Notes under the pieces: model-generated
Seen by the model: the letters and a program-made list of their open reading frames with translations, nothing else
Told to the model about the DNA's origin: nothing
The model's database searches: none
From: Escherichia coli
GTDB lineage: Bacteria > Pseudomonadota > Gammaproteobacteria > Enterobacterales > Enterobacteriaceae
Strand: one strand, 5' to 3'
Assembly: GCF_024502345.1 (NCBI RefSeq)
Contig: NZ_JALDNN010000001.1
DNA length: 64,000 nt
Shown: positions 929 through 20,973 of the stretch, one piece after another
Position numbering within the stretch: position 1 is the stretch's first letter
How the letters are laid out: every line of letters starts with the position of its first letter
Translations under genes and position numbers: made by a program

Positions 929-1083
929 TAACGTTTAACGGTAACGGTGTCCCGAAACGAACCCGTTTCGGGACAATTTCCAAAGTCTGTTCACTGGCAT
1001 TAGCAACGGAAAATATTGTTCTGAATACGCTTCAGAACAAAACAGGTGCGGTTCCGACAGGAATACCGTTTTAGGGGGATAAT

Positions 1084-2619
1084 ATGGCTACATCAGTACA
1101 GACAGGTAAAGCTAAGCAGCTCACATTACTCGGATTCTTTGCCATAACGGCATCGATGGTAATGGCTGTTTATGAATACCCTACCTTCGCAACATCGGGC
1201 TTTTCATTAGTCTTCTTCCTGCTATTAGGCGGGATTTTATGGTTTATTCCCGTGGGACTTTGTGCTGCGGAAATGGCCACCGTCGACGGCTGGGAAGAAG
1301 GTGGTGTCTTCGCCTGGGTATCAAATACTCTGGGGCCGAGATGGGGATTTGCAGCGATCTCATTTGGCTATCTGCAAATCGCCATTGGTTTTATTCCGAT
1401 GCTCTATTTCGTGTTAGGGGCACTCTCCTACATCCTGAAATGGCCAGCGCTGAATGAAGACCCCATTACCAAAACTATTGCAGCACTCATCATTCTTTGG
1501 GCGCTGGCATTAACGCAGTTTGGTGGCACGAAATACACGGCGCGAATTGCTAAAGTTGGCTTCTTCGCCGGTATCCTGTTACCTGCATTTATTTTGATCG
1601 CATTAGCGGCTATTTATCTGCACTCCGGTGCCCCCGTTGCTATCGAAATGGATTCGAAGACCTTCTTCCCTGACTTCTCTAAAGTGGGCACCCTGGTTGT
1701 ATTTGTTGCCTTCATTTTGAGTTATATGGGCGTAGAAGCTTCCGCAACCCACGTCAATGAAATGAGTAACCCAGGGCGCGACTATCCACTGGCTATGTTA
1801 CTGCTGATGGTGGCGGCAATCTGCTTAAGCTCTGTTGGTGGTTTGTCTATTGCGATGGTCATTCCGGGTAATGAAATCAACCTCTCCGCAGGGGTAATGC
1901 AAACCTTTACCGTTCTGATGTCCCATGTGGCACCGGAAATTGAGTGGACGGTTCGCGTGATCTCCGCACTGCTGTTGCTGGGTGTTCTGGCGGAAATCGC
2001 CTCCTGGATTGTTGGTCCTTCTCGCGGGATGTATGTCACAGCGCAGAAAAACCTGCTGCCAGCGGCATTCGCTAAAATGAACAAAAATGGCGTACCGGTA
2101 ACGCTGGTCATTTCGCAGCTGGTGATTACTTCTATCGCGTTGATCATCCTCACCAATACCGGTGGCGGTAACAACATGTCCTTCCTGATCGCTCTGGCGC
2201 TGACGGTGGTGATTTATCTGTGTGCTTATTTCATGCTGTTTATTGGCTACATTGTGTTGGTTCTTAAACATCCTGACTTAAAACGCACATTTAATATCCC
2301 TGGTGGTAAAGGGGTGAAACTGGTCGTGGCAATTGTCGGTCTGCTGACTTCAATTATGGCGTTTATTGTTTCCTTCCTGCCGCCGGATAACATCCAGGGT
2401 GATTCTACCGATATGTATGTTGAATTACTGGTTGTTAGTTTCCTGGTGGTACTTGCCCTGCCCTTTATTCTCTATGCTGTTCATGATCGTAAAGGCAAAG
2501 CGAATACCGGCGTCACTCTGGAGCCAATCAACAGTCAGAACGCACCAAAAGGTCACTTCTTCCTGCACCCGCGTGCACGTTCACCACACTATATTGTGAT
2601 GAATGACAAGAAACACTAA
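1084..2619 (+). CDS. gadC: Glutamate:GABA antiporter (APC family)
   Basis: 511-aa polytopic membrane ORF directly downstream of gadB, matching the gadBC acid-resistance operon layout. Confidence 0.93.
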
Positions 2620-2644
2620 CCATGTCTGAATGGTTATAAGACAA

Positions 2645-2672
2645 GGGAGCGATAAGTCATCGCTCCCTTTTT
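2645..2672 (+). terminator. Rho-independent terminator after gadC
   Basis: GC-rich inverted repeat gggagcgat/atcgctccc followed by a TTTTT run, about 25 nt after the gadC stop. Confidence 0.7.
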
Positions 2673-2749
2673 CGTGCTTGCTGTCGTATTGACTTAACCG
2701 GGATAAGTACGAGAATGAGCGCACATCTGTTTACCGGAAACCAGCACAT

Positions 2750-4069
2750 ATGGATATCTGCTCCCGAAACAAGAAATTAACGATTAGAAGACCAGCGATA
2801 CTAGTTGCACTGGCACTTTTACTGTGTAGTTGTAAAAGCACGCCTCCAGAGTCCATGGTGACACCACCAGCAGGTTCAAAGCCACCAGCCACGACGCAAC
2901 AATCGTCACAACCGATGCGTGGCATCTGGCTGGCCACGGTTTCTCGGCTCGACTGGCCTCCGGTTTCCTCGGTTAACATTAGTAACCCCACCAGCCGGGC
3001 CCGTGTACAACAACAGGCGATGATCGACAAACTGGATCATCTGCAACGTCTCGGCATAAACACGGTCTTTTTCCAGGTCAAGCCGGACGGTACCGCCCTG
3101 TGGCCATCGAAAATTTTGCCGTGGTCCGATCTTATGACCGGTAAGATTGGTGAAAATCCGGGTTACGATCCGCTGCAATTTATGCTCGACGAAGCCCACA
3201 AGCGTGGGATGAAAGTACACGCCTGGTTTAACCCCTATCGCGTATCGGTTAATACGAAGCCCGGTACTATCAGGGAACTGAATAGCACTCTGCCTCAACA
3301 ACCGGCGAGCGTCTATGTGCAACACCGCGACTGGATCAGAACGTCTGGCGATCGCTTTGTCCTCGACCCGGGCATCCCTGAGGTTCAGGACTGGATCACA
3401 TCAATAGTCGCAGAAGTGGTTTCCCGCTATCCCGTAGATGGCGTGCAGTTTGACGACTATTTCTATACGGAGTCACCGGGTTCACGGCTAAATGATAACG
3501 AAACGTACCGTAAATACGGAGGCGCATTTGCGTCAAAAGCAGACTGGCGGCGCAACAATACTCAGCAGTTAATTGCAAAGGTATCGCACACCATTAAAAG
3601 CATTAAGCCGGGAGTCGAATTTGGTGTTAGCCCGGCAGGCGTGTGGCGTAACCGATCACACGATCCGCTCGGTTCCGATACCCGAGGCGCGGCAGCCTAT
3701 GACGAATCCTACGCTGACACCCGTCGATGGGTGGAACAAGGATTGCTGGATTACATTGCTCCCCAAATTTACTGGCCGTTCTCACGGAGTGCCGCGCGTT
3801 ATGACGTGTTGGCAAAATGGTGGGCGGATGTCGTTAAACCGACCAGGACCCGCCTGTATATCGGTATCGCCTTCTATAAAGTGGGTGAACCTTCAAAGAT
3901 AGAGCCAGACTGGATGATTAACGGCGGCGTACCGGAACTGAAAAAGCAGCTCGATCTTAACGATGCGGTACCAGAAATTAGCGGCACCATCTTGTTCCGT
4001 GAGGACTATCTGAATAAACCGCAGACTCAACAAGCGGTCAGCTATCTGCAAAGTCGTTGGGGCAGTTAA
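2750..4069 (+). CDS. yddW: Lipoprotein, glycoside-hydrolase-like family (YddW)
   Basis: 439-aa ORF with signal peptide and lipobox (LLLCSCKS); position between gadC and dosC as in K-12. Confidence 0.85.
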   Translation: MDICSRNKKLTIRRPAILVALALLLCSCKSTPPESMVTPPAGSKPPATTQQSSQPMRGIWLATVSRLDWPPVSSVNISNPTSRARVQQQAMIDKLDHLQRLGINTVFFQVKPDGTALWPSKILPWSDLMTGKIGENPGYDPLQFMLDEAHKRGMKVHAWFNPYRVSVNTKPGTIRELNSTLPQQPASVYVQHRDWIRTSGDRFVLDPGIPEVQDWITSIVAEVVSRYPVDGVQFDDYFYTESPGSRLNDNETYRKYGGAFASKADWRRNNTQQLIAKVSHTIKSIKPGVEFGVSPAGVWRNRSHDPLGSDTRGAAAYDESYADTRRWVEQGLLDYIAPQIYWPFSRSAARYDVLAKWWADVVKPTRTRLYIGIAFYKVGEPSKIEPDWMINGGVPELKKQLDLNDAVPEISGTILFREDYLNKPQTQQAVSYLQSRWGS

Positions 4070-5847: not shown

Positions 5848-8247
5848 ATGAAGCTAACCGATGCGGATAATGCCGCTGATGGCATTTTTTTCCCCGCCCT
5901 TGAGCAAAATATGATGGGTGCGGTGTTAATTAACGAAAATGATGAAGTGATGTTTTTCAACCCCGCCGCAGAGAAGCTCTGGGGATACAAACGTGAAGAA
6001 GTCATTGGCAATAACATTGATATGCTGATTCCGCGGGATTTGCGTCCTGCGCATCCTGAATACATTCGTCACAACCGTGAAGGCGGTAAAGCGCGCGTCG
6101 AGGGGATGAGTCGGGAGCTGCAGCTGGAGAAAAAAGACGGCAGTAAAATCTGGACCCGTTTTGCGCTATCGAAAGTGAGCGCCGAGGGGAAAGTTTATTA
6201 CCTGGCGCTGGTACGGGATGCCAGCGTAGAAATGGCGCAAAAAGAACAGACCCGACAATTGATTATTGCCGTTGACCATCTCGACCGACCGGTGATTGTC
6301 CTCGATCCGGAACGCCATATTGTGCAGTGCAATCGCGCATTTACCGAAATGTTTGGTTACTGCATTAGCGAAGCCAGCGGTATGCAGCCCGATACACTCC
6401 TGAACATTCCTAAATTCCCTGCCGATAACCGCATTCGTTTACAACAGTTGCTATGGAAAACCGCCCGCGATCAGGACGAATTTCTGCTGCTGACGCGCAC
6501 CGGTGAAAAAATCTGGATTAAAGCCTCTATCAGCCCGGTTTATGACGTGCTCGCGCATCTGCAGAACCTGGTAATGACTTTCTCGGATATCACCGAAGAA
6601 CGGCAGATCCGCCAGCTTGAAGGCAATATTCTCGCCGCCATGTGCAGCAGCCCGCCATTTCATGAAATGGGGGAAATCATTTGTCGTAACATCGAATCTG
6701 TTCTCAACGAATCGCATGTTTCGCTGTTCGCACTGCGCAACGGGATGCCGATACACTGGGCGTCATCTTCCCACGGTGCAGAAGTTCAAAATGCGCAAAG
6801 CTGGTCAGCGACCATTCGTCAGCGTGATGGCGCGCCTGCGGGGATCCTGCAAATTAAAACCTCGTCAGGAGCAGAAACCAGCGCCTTTATCGAACGCGTG
6901 GCAGATATCAGCCAGCATATGGCCGCGCTGGCGCTGGAACAGGAAAAAAGCCGTCAGCATATTGAACAACTCATCCAATTTGATCCGATGACCGGTCTGC
7001 CAAATCGCAATAACCTGCACAATTACCTCGATGACCTTGTCGACAAAGCCGTCTCTCCGGTGGTGTATCTCATCGGTGTTGACCATATTCAGGATGTGAT
7101 TGATAGCCTTGGCTATGCGTGGGCCGATCAGGCATTGCTGGAAGTGGTCAATCGCTTTCGTGAAAAACTCAAACCGGATCAGTATCTCTGTCGTATCGAA
7201 GGTACGCAGTTTGTCCTCGTGAGCCTGGAAAACGACGTCAGTAACATTACCCAAATCGCCGATGAGCTACGGAATGTGGTCAGCAAGCCGATAATGATTG
7301 ACGATAAACCCTTCCCGCTTACCTTGAGTATTGGCATCAGCTACGACGTGGGTAAAAACCGCGATTACCTGCTCTCTACTGCTCACAATGCAATGGATTA
7401 TATTCGCAAGAATGGCGGTAACGGCTGGCAGTTCTTCAGCCCGGCGATGAACGAAATGGTAAAAGAGCGTTTGGTTTTAGGCGCAGCGCTGAAAGAAGCG
7501 ATTAGCAATAACCAACTGAAACTGGTTTACCAGCCGCAAATCTTCGCAGAAACGGGTGAACTGTACGGCATCGAAGCCCTTGCTCGCTGGCACGATCCCC
7601 AGCATGGTCATGTGCCCCCTTCACGGTTTATTCCTCTCGCAGAAGAGATTGGTGAAATCGAAAATATTGGGCGCTGGGTCATCGCGGAAGCTTGCCGTCA
7701 GTTAGCAGAATGGCGTAGCCAGAATATTCATATCCCGGCGCTTTCCGTTAACTTGTCGGCACTGCACTTTCGCAGTAATCAACTGCCTAATCAGGTGTCT
7801 GATGCAATGCAAGCCTGGGGTATTGACGGCCACCAGCTGACGGTGGAAATCACGGAAAGCATGATGATGGAACACGATACCGAAATCTTTAAGCGCATTC
7901 AGATCCTGCGTGATATGGGCGTGGGTTTATCGGTAGATGATTTTGGCACGGGCTTTTCCGGATTATCCCGCTTAGTCAGTCTTCCGGTAACGGAAATCAA
8001 AATTGACAAAAGTTTTGTCGATCGTTGTCTGACGGAAAAACGCATCCTTGCCTTACTTGAAGCCATTACCAGCATTGGGCAAAGCCTCAATTTAACCGTC
8101 GTGGCGGAAGGCGTCGAAACCAAAGAGCAATTTGAGATGCTACGCAAGATCCACTGTCGCGTTATTCAGGGATATTTCTTTTCCCGCCCCCTACCCGCCG
8201 AAGAAATTCCAGGCTGGATGAGCAGCGTGTTACCGCTGAAAATCTGA
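5848..8247 (+). CDS. dosP: Oxygen-sensing c-di-GMP phosphodiesterase (haem-PAS, GGDEF-like, EAL)
   Basis: Start taken at the internal ATG giving MKLTDADNAADGIFFPALEQ (799 aa). The track ORF begins 8 codons earlier, directly after the dosC stop. Confidence 0.9.
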   Translation: MKLTDADNAADGIFFPALEQNMMGAVLINENDEVMFFNPAAEKLWGYKREEVIGNNIDMLIPRDLRPAHPEYIRHNREGGKARVEGMSRELQLEKKDGSKIWTRFALSKVSAEGKVYYLALVRDASVEMAQKEQTRQLIIAVDHLDRPVIVLDPERHIVQCNRAFTEMFGYCISEASGMQPDTLLNIPKFPADNRIRLQQLLWKTARDQDEFLLLTRTGEKIWIKASISPVYDVLAHLQNLVMTFSDITEERQIRQLEGNILAAMCSSPPFHEMGEIICRNIESVLNESHVSLFALRNGMPIHWASSSHGAEVQNAQSWSATIRQRDGAPAGILQIKTSSGAETSAFIERVADISQHMAALALEQEKSRQHIEQLIQFDPMTGLPNRNNLHNYLDDLVDKAVSPVVYLIGVDHIQDVIDSLGYAWADQALLEVVNRFREKLKPDQYLCRIEGTQFVLVSLENDVSNITQIADELRNVVSKPIMIDDKPFPLTLSIGISYDVGKNRDYLLSTAHNAMDYIRKNGGNGWQFFSPAMNEMVKERLVLGAALKEAISNNQLKLVYQPQIFAETGELYGIEALARWHDPQHGHVPPSRFIPLAEEIGEIENIGRWVIAEACRQLAEWRSQNIHIPALSVNLSALHFRSNQLPNQVSDAMQAWGIDGHQLTVEITESMMMEHDTEIFKRIQILRDMGVGLSVDDFGTGFSGLSRLVSLPVTEIKIDKSFVDRCLTEKRILALLEAITSIGQSLNLTVVAEGVETKEQFEMLRKIHCRVIQGYFFSRPLPAEEIPGWMSSVLPLKI

Positions 8248-8260
8248 CAAATTCCTCTCG

Positions 8261-8278
8261 CCCGCACTCGCGGGTTTT
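8261..8278 (+). terminator. Putative Rho-independent terminator after dosP
   Basis: cccgc/gcggg stem followed by TTTT shortly after the dosP stop. Confidence 0.5.
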
Positions 8279-8504
8279 CATTTAACGTGACACTGTCACT
8301 TAAATACTGTGATTTCAGCTACGATTCCGGGAGATTCCTTCCTTAACTTCCCCTCTTGCACCAAAACTGCACTACGCTGCACAAATGTTGATCAAAAGTT
8401 AAAAAATATAACTTTAAGCTAGCATTCTGGCGCTTATCCCGGCATGGCATGAGATCTGCATAAGCGGAAAGCGCAGCAAATTTTGTCTTATACAGGAACC
8501 GTTT

Positions 8505-9086
8505 ATGTCGGATACCACCGAACTGGTTGATTTAGCCGTGATCTTCCCTGATCTGGAGATCGAATTGAAATACGCCTGCGCTGATAACATCACAGGTAAA
8601 GCTATTTATCAGCAAGCGCGTTGTCTGTTACACAAGGATGCGATTACCGCGCTGGCGAAAAGTATCAGTATCGCCCAGCTCTCAGGCTTACAACTGGTGA
8701 TTTACGATGCGTACCGCCCACAACAAGCACAGGCGATGTTGTGGCAAGCCTGCCCAGACCCGCAATATGTTGTTGATGTGACGGTCGGTTCTAATCACAG
8801 CCGTGGCACGGCGATCGACCTGACGCTTCGTGATGAGCACGGGAACATCCTCGATATGGGCGCAGGGTTCGATGAAATGCACGAGCGCTCCCATGCTTAC
8901 CATCCTTCCGTCCCGCCCGCCGCTCAGCGCAATCGCCTGTTGCTGAATGCGATAATGACTGGTGGCGGTTTTGTCGGTATCTCCAGCGAATGGTGGCACT
9001 TCGAATTACCCCAGGCAGCGAGTTACCCTCTGCTCGCTGATCAATTCTCTTGTTTTATATCCCCTGGCACGCAGCACGTCAGTTAA
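8505..9086 (+). CDS. ddpX: D-Ala-D-Ala dipeptidase (VanX homolog)
   Basis: 193-aa ORF with a VanX-like metal-binding motif (SNHSRGTAIDL); first gene of the ddp cluster. Confidence 0.9.
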   Translation: MSDTTELVDLAVIFPDLEIELKYACADNITGKAIYQQARCLLHKDAITALAKSISIAQLSGLQLVIYDAYRPQQAQAMLWQACPDPQYVVDVTVGSNHSRGTAIDLTLRDEHGNILDMGAGFDEMHERSHAYHPSVPPAAQRNRLLLNAIMTGGGFVGISSEWWHFELPQAASYPLLADQFSCFISPGTQHVS

Positions 9087-9099
9087 TCAGGAAACTGTC

Positions 9100-10650
9100 A
9101 TGAAGAGATCGATATCGTTTCGTCCAACATTGCTCGCGCTCGTCCTTGCCACAACTTTCCCGGTTGCGCACGCCGCCGTACCGAAAGATATGCTGGTGAT
9201 TGGTAAGGCCGCCGATCCACAAAACCTCGACCCGGCGGTAACAATAGATAATAACGACTGGACAGTGACCTACCCGTCTTATCAGCGGCTGGTTCAGTAC
9301 AAAACGGACGGTGATAAAGGCTCAACCGACGTTGAAGGCGATCTGGCAAGTAGCTGGAAAGCGTCTGACGAACAAAAAGACTGGACGTTCACCCTGAAGG
9401 ACAATGCTAAATTTGCCGATGGCACACCTGTCACTGCCGAAGCAGTAAAACTCTCTTTTGAGCGGTTACTAAAAATCGGCCAGGGGCCAGCAGAAGCATT
9501 TCCCAAAGATTTAAAGATTGATGCTCCCGACGAACATACGGTGAAGTTTACCCTTAGCCAACCATTCGCACCGTTCCTCTACACGCTGGCGAATGACGGT
9601 GCATCCATTATCAATCCGGCGGTCTTAAAGGAACATGCAGCGGATGATGCTCGCGGCTTCCTCGCGCAAAATACCGCCGGTTCCGGACCATTTATGCTGA
9701 AAAGCTGGCAAAAAGGTCAGCAATTAGTTCTGGTGCCAAATCCGCATTACCCCGGCAATAAACCGAACTTTAAGCGAGTATCGGTAAAAATTATCGGTGA
9801 AAGTGCCTCCCGTCGCCTGCAGCTCTCCCGTGGCGACATTGACATTGCCGATGCGCTGCCGGTGGATCAACTCAACGCCCTGAAGCAGGAAAATAAAGTC
9901 AATGTGGCAGAGTATCCGTCACTGCGCGTCACCTATCTGTATCTGAATAACAGCAAAGCGCCACTTAATCAGGCGGATCTGCGTCGGGCCATTTCCTGGT
10001 CTACGGATTATCAGGGAATGGTTAACGGCATTCTGAGTGGTAACGGAAAACAGATGCGCGGCCCGATTCCGGAAGGCATGTGGGGCTACGATGCGACGGC
10101 AATGCAATACAACCATGACGAAACGAAAGCCAAAGCCGAATGGGATAAAGTGAAGAGCAAACCCACCAGCCTGACGTTTCTCTACTCCGATAACGATCCG
10201 AACTGGGAGCCTATTGCTCTGGCGACACAATCCAGTCTCAACAAGCTGGGCATCAATGTGAAGCTGGAAAAGCTGGCGAACGCCACCATGCGCGACAGAG
10301 TGGGTAAAGGTGATTACGACATTGCGATTGGCAACTGGAGTCCGGATTTTGCCGACCCGTATATGTTTATGAATTACTGGTTTGAGTCAGATAAAAAAGG
10401 TCTGCCGGGTAACCGCTCGTTCTATGAAAACAGTGAGGTCGATAAGTTACTGCGCAATGCGCTTGCGACCACCGACCAGACGCAGCGTACCCGAGACTAC
10501 CAGCAGGCACAGAAAATCGTCATTGATGACGCTGCTTATGTGTACCTGTTCCAGAAAAACTACCAACTGGCGATGAACAAAGAGGTGAAAGGCTTTGTAT
10601 TCAATCCCATGCTGGAACAGGTCTTCAATATCAATACCATGAGTAAATAA
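9100..10650 (+). CDS. ddpA: Periplasmic dipeptide-binding protein of an ABC transporter
   Basis: Start chosen at MKRSISFRPTLLALVLATTFPVAHA (signal peptide). The track ORF extends upstream and overlaps the ddpX 3' end. Confidence 0.88.
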   Translation: MKRSISFRPTLLALVLATTFPVAHAAVPKDMLVIGKAADPQNLDPAVTIDNNDWTVTYPSYQRLVQYKTDGDKGSTDVEGDLASSWKASDEQKDWTFTLKDNAKFADGTPVTAEAVKLSFERLLKIGQGPAEAFPKDLKIDAPDEHTVKFTLSQPFAPFLYTLANDGASIINPAVLKEHAADDARGFLAQNTAGSGPFMLKSWQKGQQLVLVPNPHYPGNKPNFKRVSVKIIGESASRRLQLSRGDIDIADALPVDQLNALKQENKVNVAEYPSLRVTYLYLNNSKAPLNQADLRRAISWSTDYQGMVNGILSGNGKQMRGPIPEGMWGYDATAMQYNHDETKAKAEWDKVKSKPTSLTFLYSDNDPNWEPIALATQSSLNKLGINVKLEKLANATMRDRVGKGDYDIAIGNWSPDFADPYMFMNYWFESDKKGLPGNRSFYENSEVDKLLRNALATTDQTQRTRDYQQAQKIVIDDAAYVYLFQKNYQLAMNKEVKGFVFNPMLEQVFNINTMSK

Positions 10651-10651
10651 C

Positions 10652-11674
10652 GTGACCTTCTGGAGTATTTTACGCCAACGCTGCTGGGGGCTGGTGCTCG
10701 TGATGGCGGGGGTCTGTGTGATTACGTTTATTATCTCGCATCTGATCCCCGGCGATCCGGCGCGGTTATTGGCAGGTGACCGCGCCAGCGATGCTATCGT
10801 GGAAAATATTCGCCAGCAACTGGGACTGGACCAGCCACTGTATGTACAGTTTTACCGCTACGTCAGCGACCTGTTTCATGGTGACCTGGGAACATCCATT
10901 CGTACTGGGCGTCCGGTGTTGGAAGAGTTGCGTATATTTTTCCCGGCAACGCTGGAGCTGGCTTTTTGTGCCCTGCTGCTGGCACTCTTGATTGGCATCC
11001 CGCTGGGCATACTCTCTGCAGTCTGGCGAAATCGCTGGCTGGATCATCTGGTGCGAATAATGGCCATTACCGGAATCTCCACACCTGCGTTCTGGCTTGG
11101 GCTGGGCGTCATTGTGCTGTTTTATGGTCATCTGCAAATTCTTCCCGGCGGCGGAAGGCTTGATGACTGGCTGGATCCACCAACGCACGTTACCGGCTTT
11201 TATCTGCTCGATGCGCTGCTTGAAGGTAACGGTGAAGTCTTCTTCAATGCGCTGCAACATCTCATCTTACCGGCATTAACGCTGGCGTTCGTTCACCTGG
11301 GAATTGTCGCTCGCCAGATCCGCTCAGCGATGCTGGAACAATTGAGTGAAGACTACATTCGTACCGCCCGGGCCAGCGGCTTGCCTGGCTGGTATATCGT
11401 TTTATGTTATGCGCTACCCAATGCGTTGATCCCATCGATTACCGTATTAGGTCTGGCGCTGGGCGATTTGTTGTATGGCGCAGTGCTCACCGAAACCGTT
11501 TTTGCCTGGCCCGGAATGGGGGCATGGGTAGTAACATCAATACAGGCGCTCGACTTCCCGGCAGTGATGGGCTTTGCCGTCGTGGTTTCATTTGCTTATG
11601 TGCTGGTCAACCTGGTGGTGGATTTGCTCTATTTGTGGATTGATCCGCGTATCGGACGTCGAGGTGGTGAATGA
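10652..11674 (+). CDS. ddpB: ABC transporter permease
   Basis: 340-aa membrane protein; 1-nt gap after ddpA. Confidence 0.88.
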   Translation: MTFWSILRQRCWGLVLVMAGVCVITFIISHLIPGDPARLLAGDRASDAIVENIRQQLGLDQPLYVQFYRYVSDLFHGDLGTSIRTGRPVLEELRIFFPATLELAFCALLLALLIGIPLGILSAVWRNRWLDHLVRIMAITGISTPAFWLGLGVIVLFYGHLQILPGGGRLDDWLDPPTHVTGFYLLDALLEGNGEVFFNALQHLILPALTLAFVHLGIVARQIRSAMLEQLSEDYIRTARASGLPGWYIVLCYALPNALIPSITVLGLALGDLLYGAVLTETVFAWPGMGAWVVTSIQALDFPAVMGFAVVVSFAYVLVNLVVDLLYLWIDPRIGRRGGE

Positions 11675-12567
11675 TGCTAAGCGAGGAAACGTCCGCCGTA
11701 CGCCCACAAAAACAAACGCGATTTAACGGTGCAAAACTGGTATGGATGCTGAAAGGCAGTCCGCTCACCGTGACCGGCGCAGTCATCATTGTATTAATGC
11801 TACTGATGATGATTTTTTCACCGTGGTTGGCGACGCATGATCCCAACGCCATTGATTTATCCGCCCGCCTTTTGCCGCCTTCTGCGGCGCACTGGTTTGG
11901 CACCGATGAAGTGGGACGCGATCTGTTTAGCCGCGTACTGGTCGGCAGTCAGCAATCAATTCTCGCCGGATTAGTCGTGGTTGCCATTGCGGGTATGATT
12001 GGTTCGCTACTCGGATGTCTATCCGGTGTGCTTGGCGGACGCGCAGACGCCATCATCATGCGCATCATGGACATTATGCTGTCGATTCCTTCGTTGGTAC
12101 TGACAATGGCACTGGCTGCCGCTCTCGGGCCGAGTTTGTTTAACGCCATGCTGGCTATTGCTATTGTGCGAATTCCCTTTTATGTGCGCCTGGCGCGGGG
12201 GCAAGCATTAGTTGTACGCCAGTATACCTATGTTCAGGCGGCGAAAACCTTTGGCGCGTCTCGTTGGCATCTGATCAACTGGCATATTTTACGTAACTCC
12301 CTACCGCCGCTGATCGTGCAGGCATCGCTGGATATCGGTAGCGCGATTTTAATGGCCGCCACGTTGGGATTTATTGGCCTGGGTGCTCAACAACCGAGTG
12401 CTGAATGGGGCGCGATGGTAGCAAATGGTCGCAACTATGTACTCGATCAGTGGTGGTATTGCGCATTTCCGGGGGCAGCGATTTTGCTTACCGCCGTCGG
12501 GTTTAATCTCTTTGGTGATGGTATTCGCGATCTGCTTGACCCGAAATCAGGAGGAAAGCAGTCATGA
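11671..12567 (+). CDS. ddpC: ABC transporter permease
   Basis: 298-aa membrane protein; 4-nt overlap with ddpB. Confidence 0.88.
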   Translation: MMLSEETSAVRPQKQTRFNGAKLVWMLKGSPLTVTGAVIIVLMLLMMIFSPWLATHDPNAIDLSARLLPPSAAHWFGTDEVGRDLFSRVLVGSQQSILAGLVVVAIAGMIGSLLGCLSGVLGGRADAIIMRIMDIMLSIPSLVLTMALAAALGPSLFNAMLAIAIVRIPFYVRLARGQALVVRQYTYVQAAKTFGASRWHLINWHILRNSLPPLIVQASLDIGSAILMAATLGFIGLGAQQPSAEWGAMVANGRNYVLDQWWYCAFPGAAILLTAVGFNLFGDGIRDLLDPKSGGKQS

Positions 12568-13550
12568 CCCAACCCGTTCTGGACATTCAACAGCTGCATT
12601 TGAGTTTCCCCGGTTTTAACGGTGATGTTCACGCGCTCAACAATGTGTCCTTGCAGATTAACCGCAGTGAAATTGTCGGTCTGGTGGGAGAATCCGGCTC
12701 AGGTAAATCAGTCACCGCAATGCTGATTATGCGTCTGCTACCGACGGGCAGTTATTGCGTACATCGGGGGCAGATTTCACTGCTGGGAGAAGATGTTCTT
12801 AACGCTCGGGAAAAACAGCTTCGTCAGTGGCGCGGCGCACGAGTGGCGATGATCTTTCAGGAACCGATGACCGCTCTTAATCCGACACGTCGAATAGGTC
12901 TTCAGATGATGGACGTAATCCGCCATCATCAACCAATAAGTCGTCGGGAAGCCAGAGCTAAAGCGATTGCCCTGCTGGAAGAGATGCAAATCCCGGATGC
13001 CGTGGAAGTTATGTCGCGCTATCCGTTTGAGCTTTCAGGTGGTATGCGCCAGCGGGTTATGATTGCGCTGGCATTTTCCTGCGAGCCGCAATTGATTATT
13101 GCCGACGAACCGACTACGGCGCTGGACGTCACGGTACAGTTGCAGGTACTGCGTTTGCTTAAACATAAAGCCCGCGCCAGTGGAACTGCGGTACTGTTCA
13201 TCAGCCATGATATGGCCGTGGTGTCGCAACTGTGCGATAGCGTTTACGTGATGTATGCCGGAAGCGTAATTGAAAGCGGCGTGACGGCAGACGTTATCCA
13301 TCATCCCCGGCATCCGTATACCATTGGTTTGCTGCAATGCGCACCAGAACATGGAGTACCACGCCAGCCATTACCCGCCATTCCAGGGACGGTACCATAC
13401 CTCACCCATTTGCCTGACGGCTGCGCTTTTCGCGATCGTTGCTATGCGGCAGGTGCACAGTGTGAAAACGTCCCGGCGCTGACAGCGTGTGGTGACAACA
13501 ACCAGCGCTGCGCCTGTTGGTATCCGCAGCAGGAGGTCATAAGTGTCTGA
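12564..13550 (+). CDS. ddpD: ABC transporter ATP-binding protein
   Basis: Walker A (GESGSGKS), signature (LSGGMRQR) and Walker B motifs; 4-nt overlap with ddpC. Confidence 0.9.
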   Translation: MTQPVLDIQQLHLSFPGFNGDVHALNNVSLQINRSEIVGLVGESGSGKSVTAMLIMRLLPTGSYCVHRGQISLLGEDVLNAREKQLRQWRGARVAMIFQEPMTALNPTRRIGLQMMDVIRHHQPISRREARAKAIALLEEMQIPDAVEVMSRYPFELSGGMRQRVMIALAFSCEPQLIIADEPTTALDVTVQLQVLRLLKHKARASGTAVLFISHDMAVVSQLCDSVYVMYAGSVIESGVTADVIHHPRHPYTIGLLQCAPEHGVPRQPLPAIPGTVPYLTHLPDGCAFRDRCYAAGAQCENVPALTACGDNNQRCACWYPQQEVISV

Positions 13551-14469
13551 CACGTTATTAACGTTACGCGACGTCCATATCAATTTCCCGGCCCGTAAAA
13601 ACTGGCTTGGTAAAACTACGGAACATGTTCATGCCATTAATGGTATTGATTTACAGATCCGCCGTGGTGAAACCTTAGGGATCGTCGGCGAGTCAGGCTG
13701 CGGCAAAAGCACCCTCGCACAGCTTTTAATGGGCATGCTGCAACCGAGCCACGGGCAGTACATCCGTTCAGGCTCACAACGCATTATGCAGATGGTGTTT
13801 CAGGACCCGCTCTCTTCGCTTAATCCGCGCTTACCGGTGTGGCGCATCATCACAGAACCGCTCTGGATAGCTAAGCGTAGTAGTGAACAACAGCGGCGAG
13901 CGTTGGCAGAGGAGCTGGCTGTGCAGGTGGGTATTCGTCCGGAGTATCTCGACCGCCTGCCTCATGCGTTCTCCGGCGGGCAGCGGCAACGCATCGCCAT
14001 TGCCAGAGCACTCTCTTCGCAGCCTGACGTGATTGTGCTTGATGAGCCAACCTCGGCGCTGGATATCTCCGTGCAGGCGCAGATCCTCAATTTACTGGTA
14101 ACGCTACAGGAAAATCACGGGCTGACTTATGTGCTGATTTCACACAATGTCTCGGTGATACGTCATATGAGCGATCGGGTGGCGGTGATGTATCTCGGGC
14201 AGATTGTAGAACTGGGCGACGCGCAACAGGTGCTAACGGCTCCGGCACATCCATACACCCGATTATTGCTGGATTCCCTCCCCGCCATTGATAAACCGCT
14301 GGAGGAAGAATGGGCATTACGTAAAACGGAACTGCCAGGAAACCGCACGTTGCCGCAAGGCTGTTTTTTCTACGAACGTTGCCCTCTGGCAACCCACGGA
14401 TGTGAAGTCCGGCAATCATTAACAATAAGGGAGAACGGACGTGAGATCCGGTGCTGGCGGGCGCTGTAG
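13543..14469 (+). CDS. ddpF: ABC transporter ATP-binding protein
   Basis: Walker A (GESGCGKS) and signature (FSGGQRQR) motifs; 8-nt overlap with ddpD. Confidence 0.9.
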   Translation: MSDTLLTLRDVHINFPARKNWLGKTTEHVHAINGIDLQIRRGETLGIVGESGCGKSTLAQLLMGMLQPSHGQYIRSGSQRIMQMVFQDPLSSLNPRLPVWRIITEPLWIAKRSSEQQRRALAEELAVQVGIRPEYLDRLPHAFSGGQRQRIAIARALSSQPDVIVLDEPTSALDISVQAQILNLLVTLQENHGLTYVLISHNVSVIRHMSDRVAVMYLGQIVELGDAQQVLTAPAHPYTRLLLDSLPAIDKPLEEEWALRKTELPGNRTLPQGCFFYERCPLATHGCEVRQSLTIRENGREIRCWRAL

Positions 14470-14482
14470 AGATGCTAACAAC

Positions 14483-14515
14483 GCATCAGGCATTCACGCG
14501 CCTGACGCGTCATCC
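14483..14515. repeat. REP-like palindromic element between convergent ddpF and osmC
   Basis: Contains cgcatcaggc...gcctgacgcg...catccggca motifs typical of E. coli REP units. Confidence 0.45.
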
Positions 14516-14524
14516 GGCAATGCT

Positions 14525-14956
14525 TTACGATTTCAACTGGTAATCAAGCGTAATTTCCGCTTTCAGTACCTGAGAAACCGGGCATCCTGCTTTTGCTTTC
14601 TGGATGATGCCGTCAAAGGTAGAGGCATCAATACCCGGCACCGCAACTTCACTCTTCAGTGCGATTTTCGTAATCGCAAAACCGGCATCCACTTTATCCA
14701 GCGACACATCGGCGGTGGTATCAATCGATGTTGGCGTAAATCCCGCTTCCCCCAGCATTAATGAAAGCGCCATTGAGAAACATGCGGCATGCGCTGCGCC
14801 AATCAGTTCTTCAGGGTTAGTTCCTTTTTCGCCTTCAAAACGCGTGTTAAATCCATACGGCTGTTGGTTCAGCACGCCACTCTCGGTGGATACTGTTCCC
14901 TTCCCGCGTTTGATATCGCCTTCCCAGTGTGCCTGACCTTTCTTATGGATTGTCAT
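14525..14956 (-). CDS. osmC: Osmotically inducible peroxiredoxin (OsmC/Ohr family)
   Basis: 143-aa ORF MTIHKKGQAHWEGDIKRGKG...; position next to bdm and sra. Confidence 0.92.
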   Translation of the reverse strand: MTIHKKGQAHWEGDIKRGKGTVSTESGVLNQQPYGFNTRFEGEKGTNPEELIGAAHAACFSMALSLMLGEAGFTPTSIDTTADVSLDKVDAGFAITKIALKSEVAVPGIDASTFDGIIQKAKAGCPVSQVLKAEITLDYQLKS

Positions 14957-15067
14957 TGTTGCTCTCCTGTGGGCTTAAAAAGGAAATTATAGACTACGTG
15001 AGAAACAGCACGAGGATAAGCAGGATATTCCGAATAAAAATCCGGCAGAAATATTACTTCTGTACTT

Positions 15068-15104
15068 AAATTAAATTCCCACAATAAATTAAATTCCCAC
15101 AATA
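15068..15104. repeat. Tandem direct repeat (two 18-19 bp units) in the osmC upstream region
   Basis: aaattaaattcccacaata occurs twice back to back, about 110-150 bp upstream of the osmC start. Confidence 0.6.
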
Positions 15105-15319
15105 GATTACCGGGAATATATAACCCAAAAGATATTGTATCAATATTAATCGGATCATACCAATCACAATCCCTATGAATATCATGGAGTTAAAATATAA
15201 AAATCATCAACCAGGACTAATCTTAACAACGAAGCGGCAAATATTTGCCATGCTGAATGTGCTTTATAAATCTGCGATCCGTAGCAGACACCATAAATAC
15301 ACAGACACGGAGAATCACT

Positions 15320-15535
15320 ATGTTTACTTATTATCAGGCAGAAAATTCAACAGCAGAACCCGCTCTGGTTAATGCCATTGAGCAAGGCCTTCGGGCACAG
15401 CACGGTGTTGTCACTGAAGATGACATTCTCATGGAGCTGACCAAATGGGTGGAAGCTTCTGATAACGACATCCTCAGTGATATCTACCAGCAAACGATCA
15501 ATTATGTGGTCAGTGGCCAGCACCCTACGCTTTAA
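15320..15535 (+). CDS. bdm: Biofilm-dependent modulation protein
   Basis: 71-aa ORF MFTYYQAENSTAEPALVNAIEQGL... taken from the internal ATG of the track ORF. Confidence 0.88.
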   Translation: MFTYYQAENSTAEPALVNAIEQGLRAQHGVVTEDDILMELTKWVEASDNDILSDIYQQTINYVVSGQHPTL

Positions 15536-15636
15536 GGTGCTATGCTTGATCGGCAACCTAATTTAGGGGTTTAGCACGTGTTTCTTCGCTACGGCGATGT
15601 TGTCCTTAAAACTAGCTACAGGATTGAGGAGTTAAA

Positions 15637-15774
15637 ATGAAATCGAACCGTCAGGCACGTCATATTCTTGGACTGGACCATAAAATTTCTAACCAGCGCA
15701 AAATAGTTACCGAAGGTGACAAATCCAGCGTAGTAAATAACCCAACCGGCAGAAAACGCCCCGCTGAAAAGTAA
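15637..15774 (+). CDS. sra: Stationary-phase ribosome-associated protein (protein D)
   Basis: 45-aa [48 protein letters not shown] with an SD (ggag) upstream; too short for the track. Confidence 0.85.
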
Positions 15775-15804
15775 TTCATAACCATCAGTCCTCAATGACG
15801 ATTA

Positions 15805-15839
15805 AACACCATTGCCTGCGCAATGGTGTTTTTGTTTTT
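15805..15839 (+). terminator. Rho-independent terminator after sra
   Basis: Stem aacaccattg/caatggtgtt followed by a long T-run. Confidence 0.75.
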
Positions 15840-15930
15840 ATCTGCTTTATACTTGGGGCCGACGCCCTGGCGGTAAAGCAAAGACGATAAAAGCCCCCCA
15901 GGGATGGATATTCAAAAAAGAGTGAGTGAC

Positions 15931-17628
15931 ATGGAACCAAAAACAAAAAAACAGCGTTCGCTTTATATCCCTTACGCTGGCCCTGTACTGCTGGAATTTC
16001 CGTTGTTGAATAAAGGCAGTGCCTTCAGCATGGAAGAACGCCGTAACTTCAACCTGCTGGGGTTACTGCCGGAAGTGGTCGAAACCATCGAAGAACAAGC
16101 GGAACGAGCATGGATCCAGTATCAGGGATTCAAAACCGAAATCGACAAACACATCTACCTGCGTAACATCCAGGACACTAACGAAACCCTCTTCTACCGT
16201 CTGGTAAACAATCATCTTGATGAGATGATGCCTGTTATTTATACCCCAACCGTCGGCGCAGCCTGTGAGCGTTTTTCTGAGATCTACCGCCGTTCACGCG
16301 GCGTGTTTATCTCTTACCAGAACCGGCACAATATGGACGATATTCTGCAAAACGTGCCGAACCATAATATTAAAGTGATTGTGGTGACTGACGGTGAACG
16401 TATTCTGGGGCTTGGTGACCAGGGCATCGGTGGGATGGGCATTCCAATCGGTAAACTGTCGCTCTATACCGCCTGTGGCGGCATCAGCCCGGCGTATACC
16501 CTTCCGGTGGTGCTGGATGTCGGGACCAACAACCAGCAGCTGCTTAACGATCCGCTGTATATGGGCTGGCGTAATCCACGTATCACTGACGATGAATACT
16601 ATGAATTCGTTGATGAATTTATCCAGGCTGTGAAACAACGCTGGCCGGACGTGCTGTTGCAGTTTGAAGACTTTGCTCAAAAAAATGCGATGCCGTTACT
16701 TAACCGCTATCGCAATGAAATTTGTTCTTTTAACGATGACATTCAGGGCACTGCGGCGGTAACAGTCGGCACACTGATCGCAGCCAGCCGCGCGGCAGGT
16801 GGTCAGTTAAGCGAGAAAAAAATCGTCTTCCTTGGCGCAGGTTCAGCGGGATGCGGCATTGCCGAAATGATCATCGCCCAGACCCAGCGCGAAGGATTAA
16901 GCGAGGAAGCAGCGCGGCAGAAAGTCTTTATGGTCGATCGCTTTGGCTTGCTGACTGACAAGATGCCGAACCTGCTGCCTTTCCAGACCAAACTGGTGCA
17001 GAAACGCGAAAACCTCAGTGACTGGGATACCGACAGCGATGTGCTGTCACTGCTGGATGTGGTGCGCAATGTAAAACCAGATATTCTGATTGGCGTCTCA
17101 GGACAGACCGGGCTGTTTACGGAAGAGATCATCCGTGAGATGCATAAACACTGTCCGCGTCCGATCGTGATGCCGCTGTCTAACCCGACGTCACGCGTGG
17201 AAGCCACACCGCAGGACATTATCGCCTGGACCGAAGGTAACGCGCTGGTCGCCACTGGCAGCCCGTTTAATCCAGTGGTATGGAAAGATAAAATCTACCC
17301 TATCGCCCAGTGTAACAACGCCTTTATTTTCCCTGGCATCGGGCTGGGTGTTATTGCTTCCGGCGCGTCACGTATCACCGATGAGATGCTGATGTCAGCA
17401 AGTGAAACGCTTGCTCAGTATTCGCCGCTGGTGCTGAACGGCGAAGGTCTGGTACTACCGGAACTGAAAGATATTCAGAAAGTCTCCCGCGCAATTGCGT
17501 TTGCGGTTGGCAAAATGGCGCAGCAGCAAGGCGTGGCGGTGAAAACGTCTGCTGAAGCTTTGCAACAAGCCATTGACGATAATTTCTGGCAAGCCGAATA
17601 CCGCGACTACCGCCGTACCTCCATCTAA
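15931..17628 (+). CDS. maeA: NAD-dependent malic enzyme
   Basis: Start at [23 protein letters not shown] (565 aa); malic-enzyme and Rossmann motifs ([14 protein letters not shown]). Confidence 0.93.
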
Positions 17629-17761
17629 GCCTGCGCCCGGTAGTGAAGGCTACCGGGCTATTTCCCTCTCCCTTTTTCAGATCTCATCCATACTGGGTAG
17701 TGGCGAATAAATCTCATTTGCCTCACCTGCTATGCAGAACATCATCCGAAAAGGAGGAACT

Positions 17762-18772
17762 ATGAAGGCTGCAGTTGTTACGAAGGATCATCATGTTGAC
17801 GTTACGGATAAAACACTGCGCTCACTGAAACATGGCGAAGCCCTGCTGAAAATGGAGTGTTGTGGTGTATGTCATACCGATCTTCATGTTAAGAATGGCG
17901 ATTTTGGTGACAAAACCGGCGTAATTCTGGGCCATGAAGGCATCGGTGTGGTGGCAGAAGTTGGCCCAGGTGTCACCTCATTAAAACCAGGCGATCGTGC
18001 CAGCGTGGCGTGGTTTTACGAAGGATGCGGTCATTGCGAATACTGTAACAGTGGTAACGAAACGCTCTGCCGTTCAGTTAAAAATGCCGGATACAGCGTT
18101 GATGGCGGGATGGCGGAAGAGTGCATCGTGGTCGCCGATTACGCGGTAAAAGTGCCAGATGGTCTGGACTCAGCGGCGGCCAGCAGCATTACCTGTGCGG
18201 GCGTCACCACCTACAAAGCCGTTAAACTGTCAAAAATTCGTCCCGGTCAGTGGATTGCTATCTACGGTCTTGGCGGTCTGGGTAACCTCGCCCTGCAATA
18301 CGCGAAGAATGTCTTTAACGCGAAAGTGATCGCCATTGATGTCAATGATGAGCAGTTAAAACTGGCAACCGAAATGGGTGCAGATTTAGCGATTAACTCA
18401 CGCACCGAAGACGCCGCCAAAATTGTGCAGGAGAAAACCGGTGGCGCTCACGCTGCGGTGGTAACAGCAGTTGCTAAAGCTGCGTTTAACTCGGCAGTTG
18501 ATGCTGTCCGTGCAGGCGGTCGTGTTGTGGCTGTCGGTCTGCCGCCGGAGTCTATGAGCCTGGATATCCCACGTCTTGTGCTGGATGGTATTGAAGTGGT
18601 CGGTTCGCTGGTCGGCACGCGCCAGGATTTAACTGAAGCCTTCCAGTTTGCCGCCGAAGGCAAAGTGGTGCCGAAAGTCGCCCTGCGTCCGTTAGCGGAC
18701 ATCAACACCATCTTTACCGAGATGGAAGAAGGCAAAATCCGTGGCCGTATGGTGATTGATTTCCGCCGCTAA
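17762..18772 (+). CDS. adhP: Zn-dependent alcohol dehydrogenase, propanol-preferring
   Basis: 336-aa [14 protein letters not shown]... with the zinc-ADH GHEGIG motif and the catalytic and structural Zn cysteines. Confidence 0.93.
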
Positions 18773-18917
18773 GAGGCCTTTGCTGCGACTGCCATGTTCG
18801 GGTCGCAGCATCGCACACTCTCCAACATGAAATGGCTAAATGGATTATTGTTGCGTAGGAAGGAACAATAATGATAGTGTTCCCAGAGAAGGAACGCTAC
18901 TGAGAGTAAAGACACTA

Positions 18918-19202
18918 ATGAAAATGGCCAATCATCCCCGCCCGGGGGACATTATTCAGGAATCACTGGACGAACTTAATGTCAGCCTGCGCGAGTTTGC
19001 CAGAGCAATGGAAATTGCTCCCTCAACGGCAAGCCGATTGCTGACAGGAAAAGCAGCTTTGACGCCAGAAATGGCAATTAAACTTTCCGTGGTGATCGGC
19101 AGTTCGCCGCAAATGTGGCTGAATCTGCAAAACGCCTGGAGTCTGGCAGAGGCAGAAAAAACGGTGGATGTGTCGCGATTACGCCGTCTGGTTACGCAAT
19201 AA
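18918..19202 (+). CDS. yddM: HigA-like XRE-family HTH protein (orphan antitoxin-like)
   Basis: 94-aa [45 protein letters not shown]... with an HTH motif. Confidence 0.8.
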
Positions 19203-19253
19203 AAAAATGGCACCTTATAAAGCGCCATTTGAAACTGATGACAAATGCAACAT

Positions 19254-19370
19254 TGCCCGATGCGCTACGCTTATCAGGCCTACACGTTCACTGCAATCTA
19301 TTGGATTTGAACGGTTTGTAGGCCGGATAAGGCGTTCACGCCGCATCCGGCATGAACAAAGCCTACGTTG
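19254..19370. repeat. BIME/REP cluster between yddM and fdnI
   Basis: Two inverted REP units (tgcccgatgcgctacgcttatcaggcctaca and gtaggccggataaggcgttcacgccgcatccggca). Confidence 0.75.
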
Positions 19371-19430
19371 TCTACAATATGAAAATGACGCCTTTTACAG
19401 CGCCATTTTCAGCTTAAAGTTCAAAAGAGA

Positions 19431-20084
19431 TTATATCCCTTCTTCACTCTCTTTTTTCGCTTCTGCCTTCTCGATTTCACGATACCAGCGCGGATGGTGT
19501 TTCTTCGCCCAGCGACGGCTCACCTTCCCTTCGATCATCCCTTTAATCGATCCTTTCACCCAGAATGCCATATACATATGGATCAGGATGGCGTGGATCA
19601 GGATGATACCCGCAGCCGCGTGGATCAGCAGGCTATAACGGACAACCTGCATCGGGAAGTACTGCGCAAAGTACGGACGCCAGATAATCACCCCGGTCAC
19701 CAGCAGCACGAAAATCATGCTCATGATCGACCAGAACATCATCTTTTGCCCGGCGTTGTACTTACCGACATCCGCCACTTTGTGCTCATTGCCTTTCAAT
19801 ACTTCGACAATGTTCAACAGCCACGGAATATCTTTCTTATCCGGGATGTTGTGATGCACAAAACGCACAAACATAAACATCAGCGCGACGAAAATCGCAA
19901 TGCCGAAGAACGGGTGCAAAATGCGTCCCATCTGCGGCGTACCGAAGGTTTGCGTCAGCCATTGCAGCGTCGGGAAGAAGAACGAAATCCCGGACAGCGC
20001 CACCAGGAAGAAGCAAATCACCACGGTCCAGTGACAGGCGCGATCAATAAATTTGGTGCGCACAATCATTTTCGACTTACTCAT
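19431..20084 (-). CDS. fdnI: Formate dehydrogenase-N gamma subunit (cytochrome b556)
   Basis: Start at [22 protein letters not shown] (217 aa); polytopic haem-binding membrane subunit. Confidence 0.92.
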
Positions 20085-20961
20085 GATGATCCTCCTCGTC
20101 ATCGTCCACTTCCTTATTCGGGCCAATACCGATGTAGTGGAAAATCAACCCGGCAAAAGTGGCAATAAAGCCAGCCGCTGCCAGCGGTTTCAACGCGCCT
20201 TTCCACAGGCTTACCGAGGTGTCGATCTTCGGATCTTTCGGCAGACCGTGATACAGCTCCGGCTGATCGGCGTGATGCAGCACGTACATAACGTGCGTAC
20301 CACCGACCCCTTCCGGGTTGTAGACGCCAGCATGTTCGTAACCACGCGCTTTCAGTTTCGCCACGCGCTGTTCCGCCAGCTCCAGCATCTCCTTCTTGGT
20401 GCCGAAGTGGATAGCCCCGGTCGGACAGGTTTTCACACAAGCCGGTTCCTGGCCGACGCTGACGCGATCGACGCAGAGCGTGCATTTATATACCCGGTTA
20501 TCCTCTTTGTTGAGGCGCGGAATATTAAACGGACACCCGGCAATGCAGTAACCACAGCCGATGCAGTTTTCCGACTGGAAATCGACAATACCGTTAGCGT
20601 ACTGAATGATTGCACCAGCAGACGGGCACGCCTTCAGGCAGCCGGGATCTTCACAGTGCATACAGCCGTCTTTACGGATCAGCCACTCCAGCTTGCCGTT
20701 CTGTTCGGTTTCGCTAAAGCGCATCACCGTCCAGGACTTGGCGCTCAGATCGGCGGGGTTATCGTAAACCCCGACGCAGTGCCCCACTTCATCACGGATG
20801 TCGTTCCACTCCGAACACGCCACCTGACAGGCTTTACAGCCGATACAGGTGGAAACGTCGATAAGTTTTGCGACTTCTGCTTTGTAATCACGCACCTGAG
20901 AAGGCGGCGTGATGGAGTTAGTTGCGGACCTTTTGATAATGTCCTGCGTTTCCATAGCCAT
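20077..20961 (-). CDS. fdnH: Formate dehydrogenase-N beta subunit (4x[4Fe-4S])
   Basis: 294-aa ORF with several CxxCxxCxxxCP ferredoxin motifs and a C-terminal transmembrane anchor. Confidence 0.93.
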
Positions 20962-20973
20962 CTGTTCGCCCCC

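Follow-up and report, generated by a model that had tools for sequence, protein, structure and literature searches.

The stretch of DNA analyzed here, hereafter the window, comprises 64,000 nucleotides of an Escherichia coli contig and carries osmC together with the divergently oriented bdm and, beyond it, sra (Table 1). A spacer of 364 nt separates osmC from bdm, and it contains a tandem direct repeat that ends 219 nt from the bdm ATG. The first-pass annotation had placed this repeat upstream of osmC, between osmC and the bdm-sra genes, and the positions of the open reading frames, the RefSeq annotation of homologous loci, and the Pfam families assigned on near-identical contigs all bear that placement out.

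Table 1. Features of the osmC-bdm region and its surroundings, in window coordinates; negative numbers are counted from the osmC transcription start.
Feature	Position	Strand	Basis and remarks
osmC CDS, 143-aa peroxiredoxin	14525..14956	minus	ORF list; RefSeq annotation of homologous loci; Pfam OsmC on near-identical contigs
osmC core promoter: overlapping -10 hexamers TAGTCT (14996-14991) and TATAAT (14991-14986), +1 at 14984	14984..14996	minus	K-12 start site; conservation
RcsB-like box TTCGGAATATCCTG	15021..15034	minus	-37 to -50; first 14 nt of the published -50 to +1 sequence
Repeat copy 1	15067..15084		-83 to -100; position common to single-copy genomes in the alignment
Repeat copy 2	15085..15102		Identical to copy 1; -101 to -118; extra 18 bp absent in K-12 and ~99.4% of complete E. 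coli genomes
Partial third copy, TAGATTA	15103..15109		6 of 7 bases match TAAATTA (unit start); Tandem Repeats Finder array extension and direct reading
Promoter-like TTGATA-17-TATATT (predicted)	15115..15143	minus	Directed towards osmC, just upstream of the repeat; promoter scan, 10/12 consensus positions
Best RcsB-consensus match of the spacer, TAAGATTAGTCCTG, 1 mismatch	15212..15225	minus	Motif scan; 20 bp upstream of the predicted bdm -35; 110 bp from the repeat
Predicted bdm -35, TTGCCA	15245..15250		~143 bp (>140 bp) from the repeat
bdm CDS, divergent from osmC	15321..15536	plus	ORF list; RefSeq annotation of homologous loci; Pfam BDM
sra CDS	15637..15774	plus	ORF list; RefSeq annotation of homologous loci; Pfam SRA_like
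SECIS_3 selenocysteine insertion element	23381..23439	minus	Rfam, 84 bits; the expected fdnG element, ordinary

The wider surroundings differ among strains. The neighborhood downstream of osmC is variable among phylogroups, because in FDAARGOS_1266 (L008) and O166:H15 JNE21-003 (L010) the ddp operon does not adjoin osmC (positions 1-1034 of these loci) and its place is taken by dosP or by a GntP permease and a 3-hydroxybutyrate dehydrogenase. Across window positions 8000-23000, the closest complete E. coli genome is FDAARGOS_943, with 99.5% identity over 15 kb, and all others reach at most 98.6%. FDAARGOS_943 carries an IS1 element between sra and maeA as well as a frameshifted maeA, and the window has neither. 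As judged from these identities, the window may belong to a lineage with few representatives among complete E. coli genomes, possibly a Shigella-like one.

The repeat occupies positions 15067-15102 and consists of two exact head-to-tail copies of TAAATTAAATTCCCACAA, each 18 nt long. It had been described earlier as spanning 15068-15104 with a unit, aaattaaattcccacaata, of 18-19 bp; the tract is the same one, shifted by one base, and the period is 18 rather than 19. Two repeat-finding tools agree on the two exact copies. Tandem Repeats Finder reports an array at 15067-15109 with a period of 18, 2.4 copies, and 96% matches, and a second repeat search returns the two copies (15067-15084 and 15085-15102) as a family of its own, D1, at 100% identity. 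Read on the osmC-sense strand, TATTGTGGGAATTTAATT is a rotation of the same 18-bp unit, which has an AT content of 78% and includes a T-A step. The tandem repeat is not a chance match: by our own calculation, 64 kb of DNA with 65% AT should contain about 4e-6 exact 18-nt tandem repeats, and the unit with up to three mismatches occurs three times in the window (the two copies and one site with three mismatches) against 0.06 occurrences expected from shuffled sequence. Only two tandem arrays were detected in the whole 64-kb window, and the array upstream of osmC has the higher score. The other, at 24940-24978 (period 20, 1.9 copies, 89% matches), lies within a 293-aa open reading frame on the plus strand (24253-25134). 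The duplication is not an assembly artifact either, because it is also found in 35 complete genomes and in independent draft and metagenome contigs.

To see how widely the two copies occur, we compared the same region across 5,426 complete E. coli genomes. The spacer has a counterpart in 5,406 of them, and the matching stretch measures 343-346 nt in almost all genomes and 363-364 nt in a small group only. With a 65-nt query laid across the repeat junction and a required coverage of at least 80%, the two-copy allele is present in 35 of the 5,426 genomes (0.65%), several of these carriers being resequenced or sister isolates, whereas the other matching genomes, K-12 included, align over about half of the query. 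Only one or two copies were seen, and none of the complete E. coli matches has three. An alignment of the window with ten representatives (11 E. coli sequences in all) gives the same picture. K-12 MG1655, 21EVA, STW0522-31, O157:H7 Z1813, FDAARGOS_1266, and O166:H15 JNE21-003 have a clean 18-nt gap, which can be aligned over either copy, and both copies are kept in the window, FDAARGOS_943, 05-3629, 2014C-3011, and RM11911. The two-copy state is a rare, lineage-restricted length polymorphism and not a conserved architecture.

For a view beyond E. coli, we used a degenerate pattern for the OsmC N terminus to retrieve the osmC loci of GTDB species representatives. A single copy of the unit, at the same distance from the ATG, is found in Escherichia sp. 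MOD1-EC7003, E69, SCPM-O-B-8794, E. whittamii, and E1V33, the non-coli loci with a recognizable single unit (labeled L105, L037, L017, L057, and L113), and the unit is recognized there at 14-18 of 18 positions. No recognizable unit is present in the E. albertii, Salmonella, and Citrobacter osmC loci examined. Because K-12, nearly all E. coli, and the other Escherichia representatives with a recognizable unit have one copy, comparison of these sequences indicates that one copy is ancestral and two copies are derived. The first-pass annotation had allowed for a small duplication as an alternative to regulator binding sites, and of its two proposals this is the correct one. The unit itself, at 13-16 of 18 positions in non-coli Escherichia, is also better conserved than parts of its surroundings, namely the segment from -51 to -81 in E. 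whittamii and E1V33 (16-17 of 31 positions) and the stretch from -118 to -185. In the E. coli alignment, it falls within an osmC-proximal block conserved among phylogroups, and positions 15121-15188 are variable. Since the unit is conserved across Escherichia and lies inside this conserved block, it may be a real binding element, and its doubling could matter.

The ancestral sequence suggests how the second copy could have arisen. Written on the osmC-sense strand, the sequence with one copy is GGTAATCTA-TTGTGGGAATT-TAATTTA-AGT, and K-12 and the other single-copy sequences thus contain TAATCTA and TAATTTA (TAATCTA-N11-TAATTTA), a direct repeat that matches at six of seven positions and whose two starts are 18 bp apart. 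A 7-bp near-repeat of this kind is likely a typical substrate for replication slippage. From this sequence anatomy we infer slipped-strand mispairing, in which the nascent strand would mispair between TAATCTA and TAATTTA during replication and exactly 18 bp would be copied, giving the TAATCTA...TAATTTA...TAATTTA arrangement of the window. The tract has the hallmarks of a slippage-type polymorphism, that is, exact head-to-tail copies, a single-copy ancestor, a flanking short direct repeat, and a copy number that varies among close relatives.

Once formed, the two-copy allele is inherited stably enough to gather SNPs, yet can revert to one copy. As relatives of the window we took contigs encoding a DdpF protein identical to its own and compared them over 6.9 kb (window 10543-17469); they lie 1-21 SNPs from the window and up to 37 from each other. 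Two copies are present in seven of the eight DdpF-identical contigs shown (L125-L131), one of which (L131, GCA_032324195.1) carries a C-to-T substitution in one of its copies (window position 15097), and the two-copy allele is old enough to have diversified. In L132 (GCA_049547745.1) there is one copy, at a distance of 4 SNPs from the window, and two are present in L128 and L129, which are farther from the window; these sequences are most economically explained by a secondary loss of one of the copies. Because L132 has one copy at so small a distance, copy number changes even within a very tight lineage.

The duplication occurs on at least four spacer haplotypes among complete genomes, defined as identity classes, and in the lineage of the window the haplotype switches at the duplication itself (about 15060-15110, with flanks taken over 14525-15320). 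On the osmC side, the gene and the proximal spacer each have one difference from STW0522-31; the bdm-proximal spacer is identical to that of 05-3629 and has one difference from K-12 and 16 from STW0522-31. Among complete E. coli genomes, this mosaic spacer was not found with one copy (best identity 98.8%); one draft genome, L132, does have it, and its spacer differs from that of the window by the 18 bp only. The presence of the duplication on several spacer haplotypes, together with the haplotype switch in the window, raises the question of whether a single origin was spread by recombination or the duplication had several independent, recurrent origins, and we are undecided between the two.

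To relate the repeat to the promoter of osmC, we carried over the transcription start mapped in K-12. Among the entries of Table S1 in Kim et al. 2012 (PMC3415461), the osmC start is given as NC_000913.2 1554621, plus strand, with 3 reads and a 28-nt 5'UTR, and the -50 to +1 sequence listed with it is TTCGGAATATCCTGCTTATCCTCGTGCTGTTTCTCACGTAGTCTATAATTT (TTCGGAATATCCTG...TCTATAATTT). Because the K-12 start has this 28-nt 5'UTR and the upstream sequence TTCGGAATATCCTG...TCTATAATTT, the +1 of the window falls at 14984, a position based on the same 3 reads. The two -10 hexamers immediately upstream overlap, which fits the published description of osmC as having two overlapping promoters (PMC7285182), and TAGTCT and TATAAT would be allotted to osmCp1 and osmCp2. 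Conservation of TCTATAAT/TCTATACT extends to Salmonella and Citrobacter, which would be expected of a sigma-S-type -10.

Upstream of these hexamers lies the RcsB-like box, which is conserved at 13-14 of 14 positions across Escherichia, E. albertii included, and is not conserved in Salmonella. A 14-mer overlapping it (15020-15033) has two mismatches to the RcsB consensus TN(G/A)GAN4TC(T/C)NA (PMC7913699), and the usual position of RcsB sites is directly upstream of the -35 (PMC5651002). The box is the probable RcsB/NhaR activator site of osmCp1. This role is presumably the one described in the work of Davalos-Garcia in 2001 and of Sturny in 2003. According to the latter, RcsB and NhaR reportedly protect overlapping DNA near the osmCp1 -35, and activation is said in both to need only short sequences adjoining the -35.

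Set against these elements, with the start site of PMC3415461 Table S1 as reference, the RcsB-like box covers -37 to -50 and the repeat -83 to -118 (about -82 to -101 for its K-12 counterpart), so that the repeat begins 33 bp beyond the box and outside the core promoter. Its 18-bp period corresponds to 1.7 helical turns, which puts the two copies out of phase, on different faces of the helix, and, seen from the core promoter, the 18-bp insertion rotates all DNA farther upstream by about 1.7 turns. A repeat that is exact and in tandem, in the AT-rich regulatory spacer of a much-regulated gene, does invite the reading put forward in the first-pass annotation, in which a dimeric or oligomeric osmC regulator such as Lrp, H-NS, NhaR, or RcsB would bind the copies as the paired half-sites of its operator. 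We find that reading hardly tenable, given that copy 2 is missing from K-12 MG1655, the strain in which osmC regulation was characterized, and from 5,391 of the 5,426 complete E. coli genomes, that the repeat lies 33 bp beyond the activator box, that its period does not amount to complete turns of the helix, and that it contains no RcsB or Lrp consensus. The same annotation had named absence from other strains, or a location outside any mapped promoter or footprint, as what would tell against its proposal. The paired-operator reading fails on the first count because copy 2 is absent from more than 99% of genomes, and on the second as far as the mapped core promoter and the RcsB-like box are concerned, since the tract lies outside both.

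A different arrangement would place the repeat within the transcribed leader of osmC. If the predicted TTGATA-17-TATATT promoter were used, transcription would start near 15108 and the leader, of about 150 nt, would be lengthened by 18 nt. This promoter-like site matches the consensus at 10 of 12 positions, its hexamers are those listed for osmC by Shimada 2014 (PMC3946193), and the spacer binds RpoD holoenzyme alone in vitro. We nevertheless consider a leader location very unlikely. The listed TTGATA/TATATT hexamers are best-match "constitutive promoter" predictions and not mapped starts (PMC3946193), the only osmC start listed in the part of the PMC3415461 table covered here is 28 nt from the ATG, with none listed at 15115-15163, promoter-like sites are no commoner in the spacer than in shuffled sequence (2 found against 2.3 expected), and the -35 region of TTGATA-17-TATATT is variable among phylogroups. 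The scan also found an overlapping sigma-70-like site, TTGGTA-18-TACAAT, that points to osmC as well (both sites within 15115-15163). A distal layout, in which TTGATA-17-TATATT was combined with an RcsB site at 15150-15163 so that the repeat would lie in the leader or over osmCp2, was considered and rejected: the +1 lies 28 nt from the ATG, and the RcsB site at 15150-15163 is not conserved among phylogroups.

We also scanned the repeat for sites of known regulators. No RcsB box with up to two mismatches lies within 15067-15109, the matches in the spacer being at 15020-15033, 15135-15168, 15212-15225, and 15264-15277. A search of the whole spacer, with one copy and with two, gave no match of 12 or more of 15 positions to the Lrp SELEX consensus YAGHAWATTWTDCTR; Lrp binding is poorly predicted from the motif alone (bioRxiv 10.1101/276808). 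Neither the repeat nor its junction was hit in the promoter scan, no Rfam family was found in the osmC-bdm spacer, and a full-text literature search for the unit sequence and the RcsB-like box sequence returned no relevant paper. For H-NS, whose nucleation motif is tCG(t/a)TA(a/t)ATT (Lang et al. 2007, PMC2094087), the junction between the copies, ACAATAAATT, matches the template at 8 of 10 positions and is the fourth such match in the spacer. In genomic SELEX, an in vitro method, an H-NS binding site was assigned to the bdm-osmC spacer (PMC3946193), and H-NS represses both osmC promoters by a mechanism described as unknown (PMC7285182). An overlap of the repeat with an Lrp or H-NS site is possible.

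On the bdm side, the best RcsB match of the spacer, TAAGATTAGTCCTG, is invariant in all 11 aligned E. coli sequences and is the probable bdm RcsB box, its function being predicted from its sequence. Another RcsB box with one mismatch, TTGGTATGATCCGA (15163-15150), is probably not functional, because it is variable among phylogroups. Overlapping the predicted bdm -35 is a perfect 14-bp palindrome, GGCAAATATTTGCC (15236-15249), likewise invariant in the 11 sequences; in a scan it was reported as a terminator-like element of the minus strand, and to us it looks more operator-like. In Salmonella enterica SL1344, one RcsB box, TGAGATTTATCCTA, is assigned both to osmC, at -21 to -35, and to yddX, its divergent neighbor, at -9 to +5 (PMC7913699 Table 2); the distance of this box from the start codon of osmC is 243 nt. 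This shared-box layout differs from that of E. coli, whose RcsB-like box is not conserved in Salmonella.

Taken together, we think it highly likely that the two copies are a derived, lineage-restricted 18-bp duplication in AT-rich DNA upstream of the osmC promoters and not a conserved two-site operator. Because the insertion lies upstream of the RcsB/NhaR site and is separated from the predicted bdm promoter by more than 140 bp, we expect it to leave the osmC core promoter and its control by activators as they are. If there is an effect, it would be that H-NS or Lrp occupancy, or the geometry of the upstream silencing region, shifts modestly, and from the layout of the locus the regulatory effect on osmC and bdm is probably small or absent.

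A more consequential role can be imagined, in which the unit binds Lrp, H-NS, or another factor, its doubling or the accompanying rotation alters expression of osmC, bdm, or both, and the change from one copy to two acts as a slow, reversible tuning switch. Several observations point in this direction: the unit is 72-89% conserved across Escherichia species, above some neighboring segments; the spacer is an H-NS SELEX target, to which the junction adds a further 8/10 template site; the allele persists across diverse hosts and haplotypes; and both gain and loss of a copy are seen. We still regard an adaptive cis-regulatory variant of this kind as unlikely. The allele reaches a frequency of only 0.65% among complete genomes, the repeat has no consensus match to a known osmC regulator, and AT-rich DNA commonly yields 8/10 matches to the H-NS template, this spacer alone having three others. 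In addition, activation, as the 2003 and 2001 studies of Sturny and Davalos-Garcia are said to have found, needs only short sequences at the -35. We give still less credence to the stronger form of the idea, according to which the 18-bp unit would be an upstream osmC control element conserved across Escherichia and the change from one copy to two would reset H-NS/Lrp silencing of the divergent osmC and bdm-sra promoters in certain lineages.

Returning to the reading that we favor, a derived duplication is an ordinary kind of variation and matters little in itself. The comparison of strains does, however, correct a tempting misreading, in that a pair of perfect direct repeats near a promoter is easily taken for an operator, and here one copy is the norm. 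The two-copy allele could serve as a minor lineage marker, and the one-copy and two-copy alleles form a natural pair for testing the part played by the DNA from -80 to -120 in H-NS and Lrp control of osmC.

Among known systems, the tract resembles the H-NS nucleation motif in its 78% AT content, its T-A step, and the 8/10 match at its junction, within a spacer that is an H-NS SELEX target, but the match is a weak one of the kind common in AT-rich DNA. The likeness to direct-repeat operators and iterons is superficial, consisting of two identical direct repeats in a promoter-proximal spacer. In direct-repeat operators both repeats are conserved and are spaced by about whole helical turns (about 10.5 or 21 bp), whereas here the second copy is missing from nearly all strains and the period is 1.7 turns. 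The well-studied K-12 osmCp1/osmCp2 region, with its sigma-S-type -10, its RcsB/NhaR site beside the -35, and its repression by H-NS and Lrp, is the same locus, and the core promoter, 5'UTR, and RcsB-like box are identical from the ATG to -50; the window differs by the extra 18-bp unit at -101 to -118 and by one extra T in a T-run. Small VNTRs differ from the tract in forming longer arrays, whereas only the one-copy and two-copy states occur here; the MLVA locus CVN002, of the 18-bp class, was set aside as a counterpart, having alleles of 0-18 copies against only 1 or 2 at the osmC tract (PMC3407997). In its exact head-to-tail copies, the flanking 7-bp near-repeat of its ancestor, its variation among close relatives, and the divergence of one copy, the tract is otherwise like the short tandem duplications and VNTRs that slippage makes.
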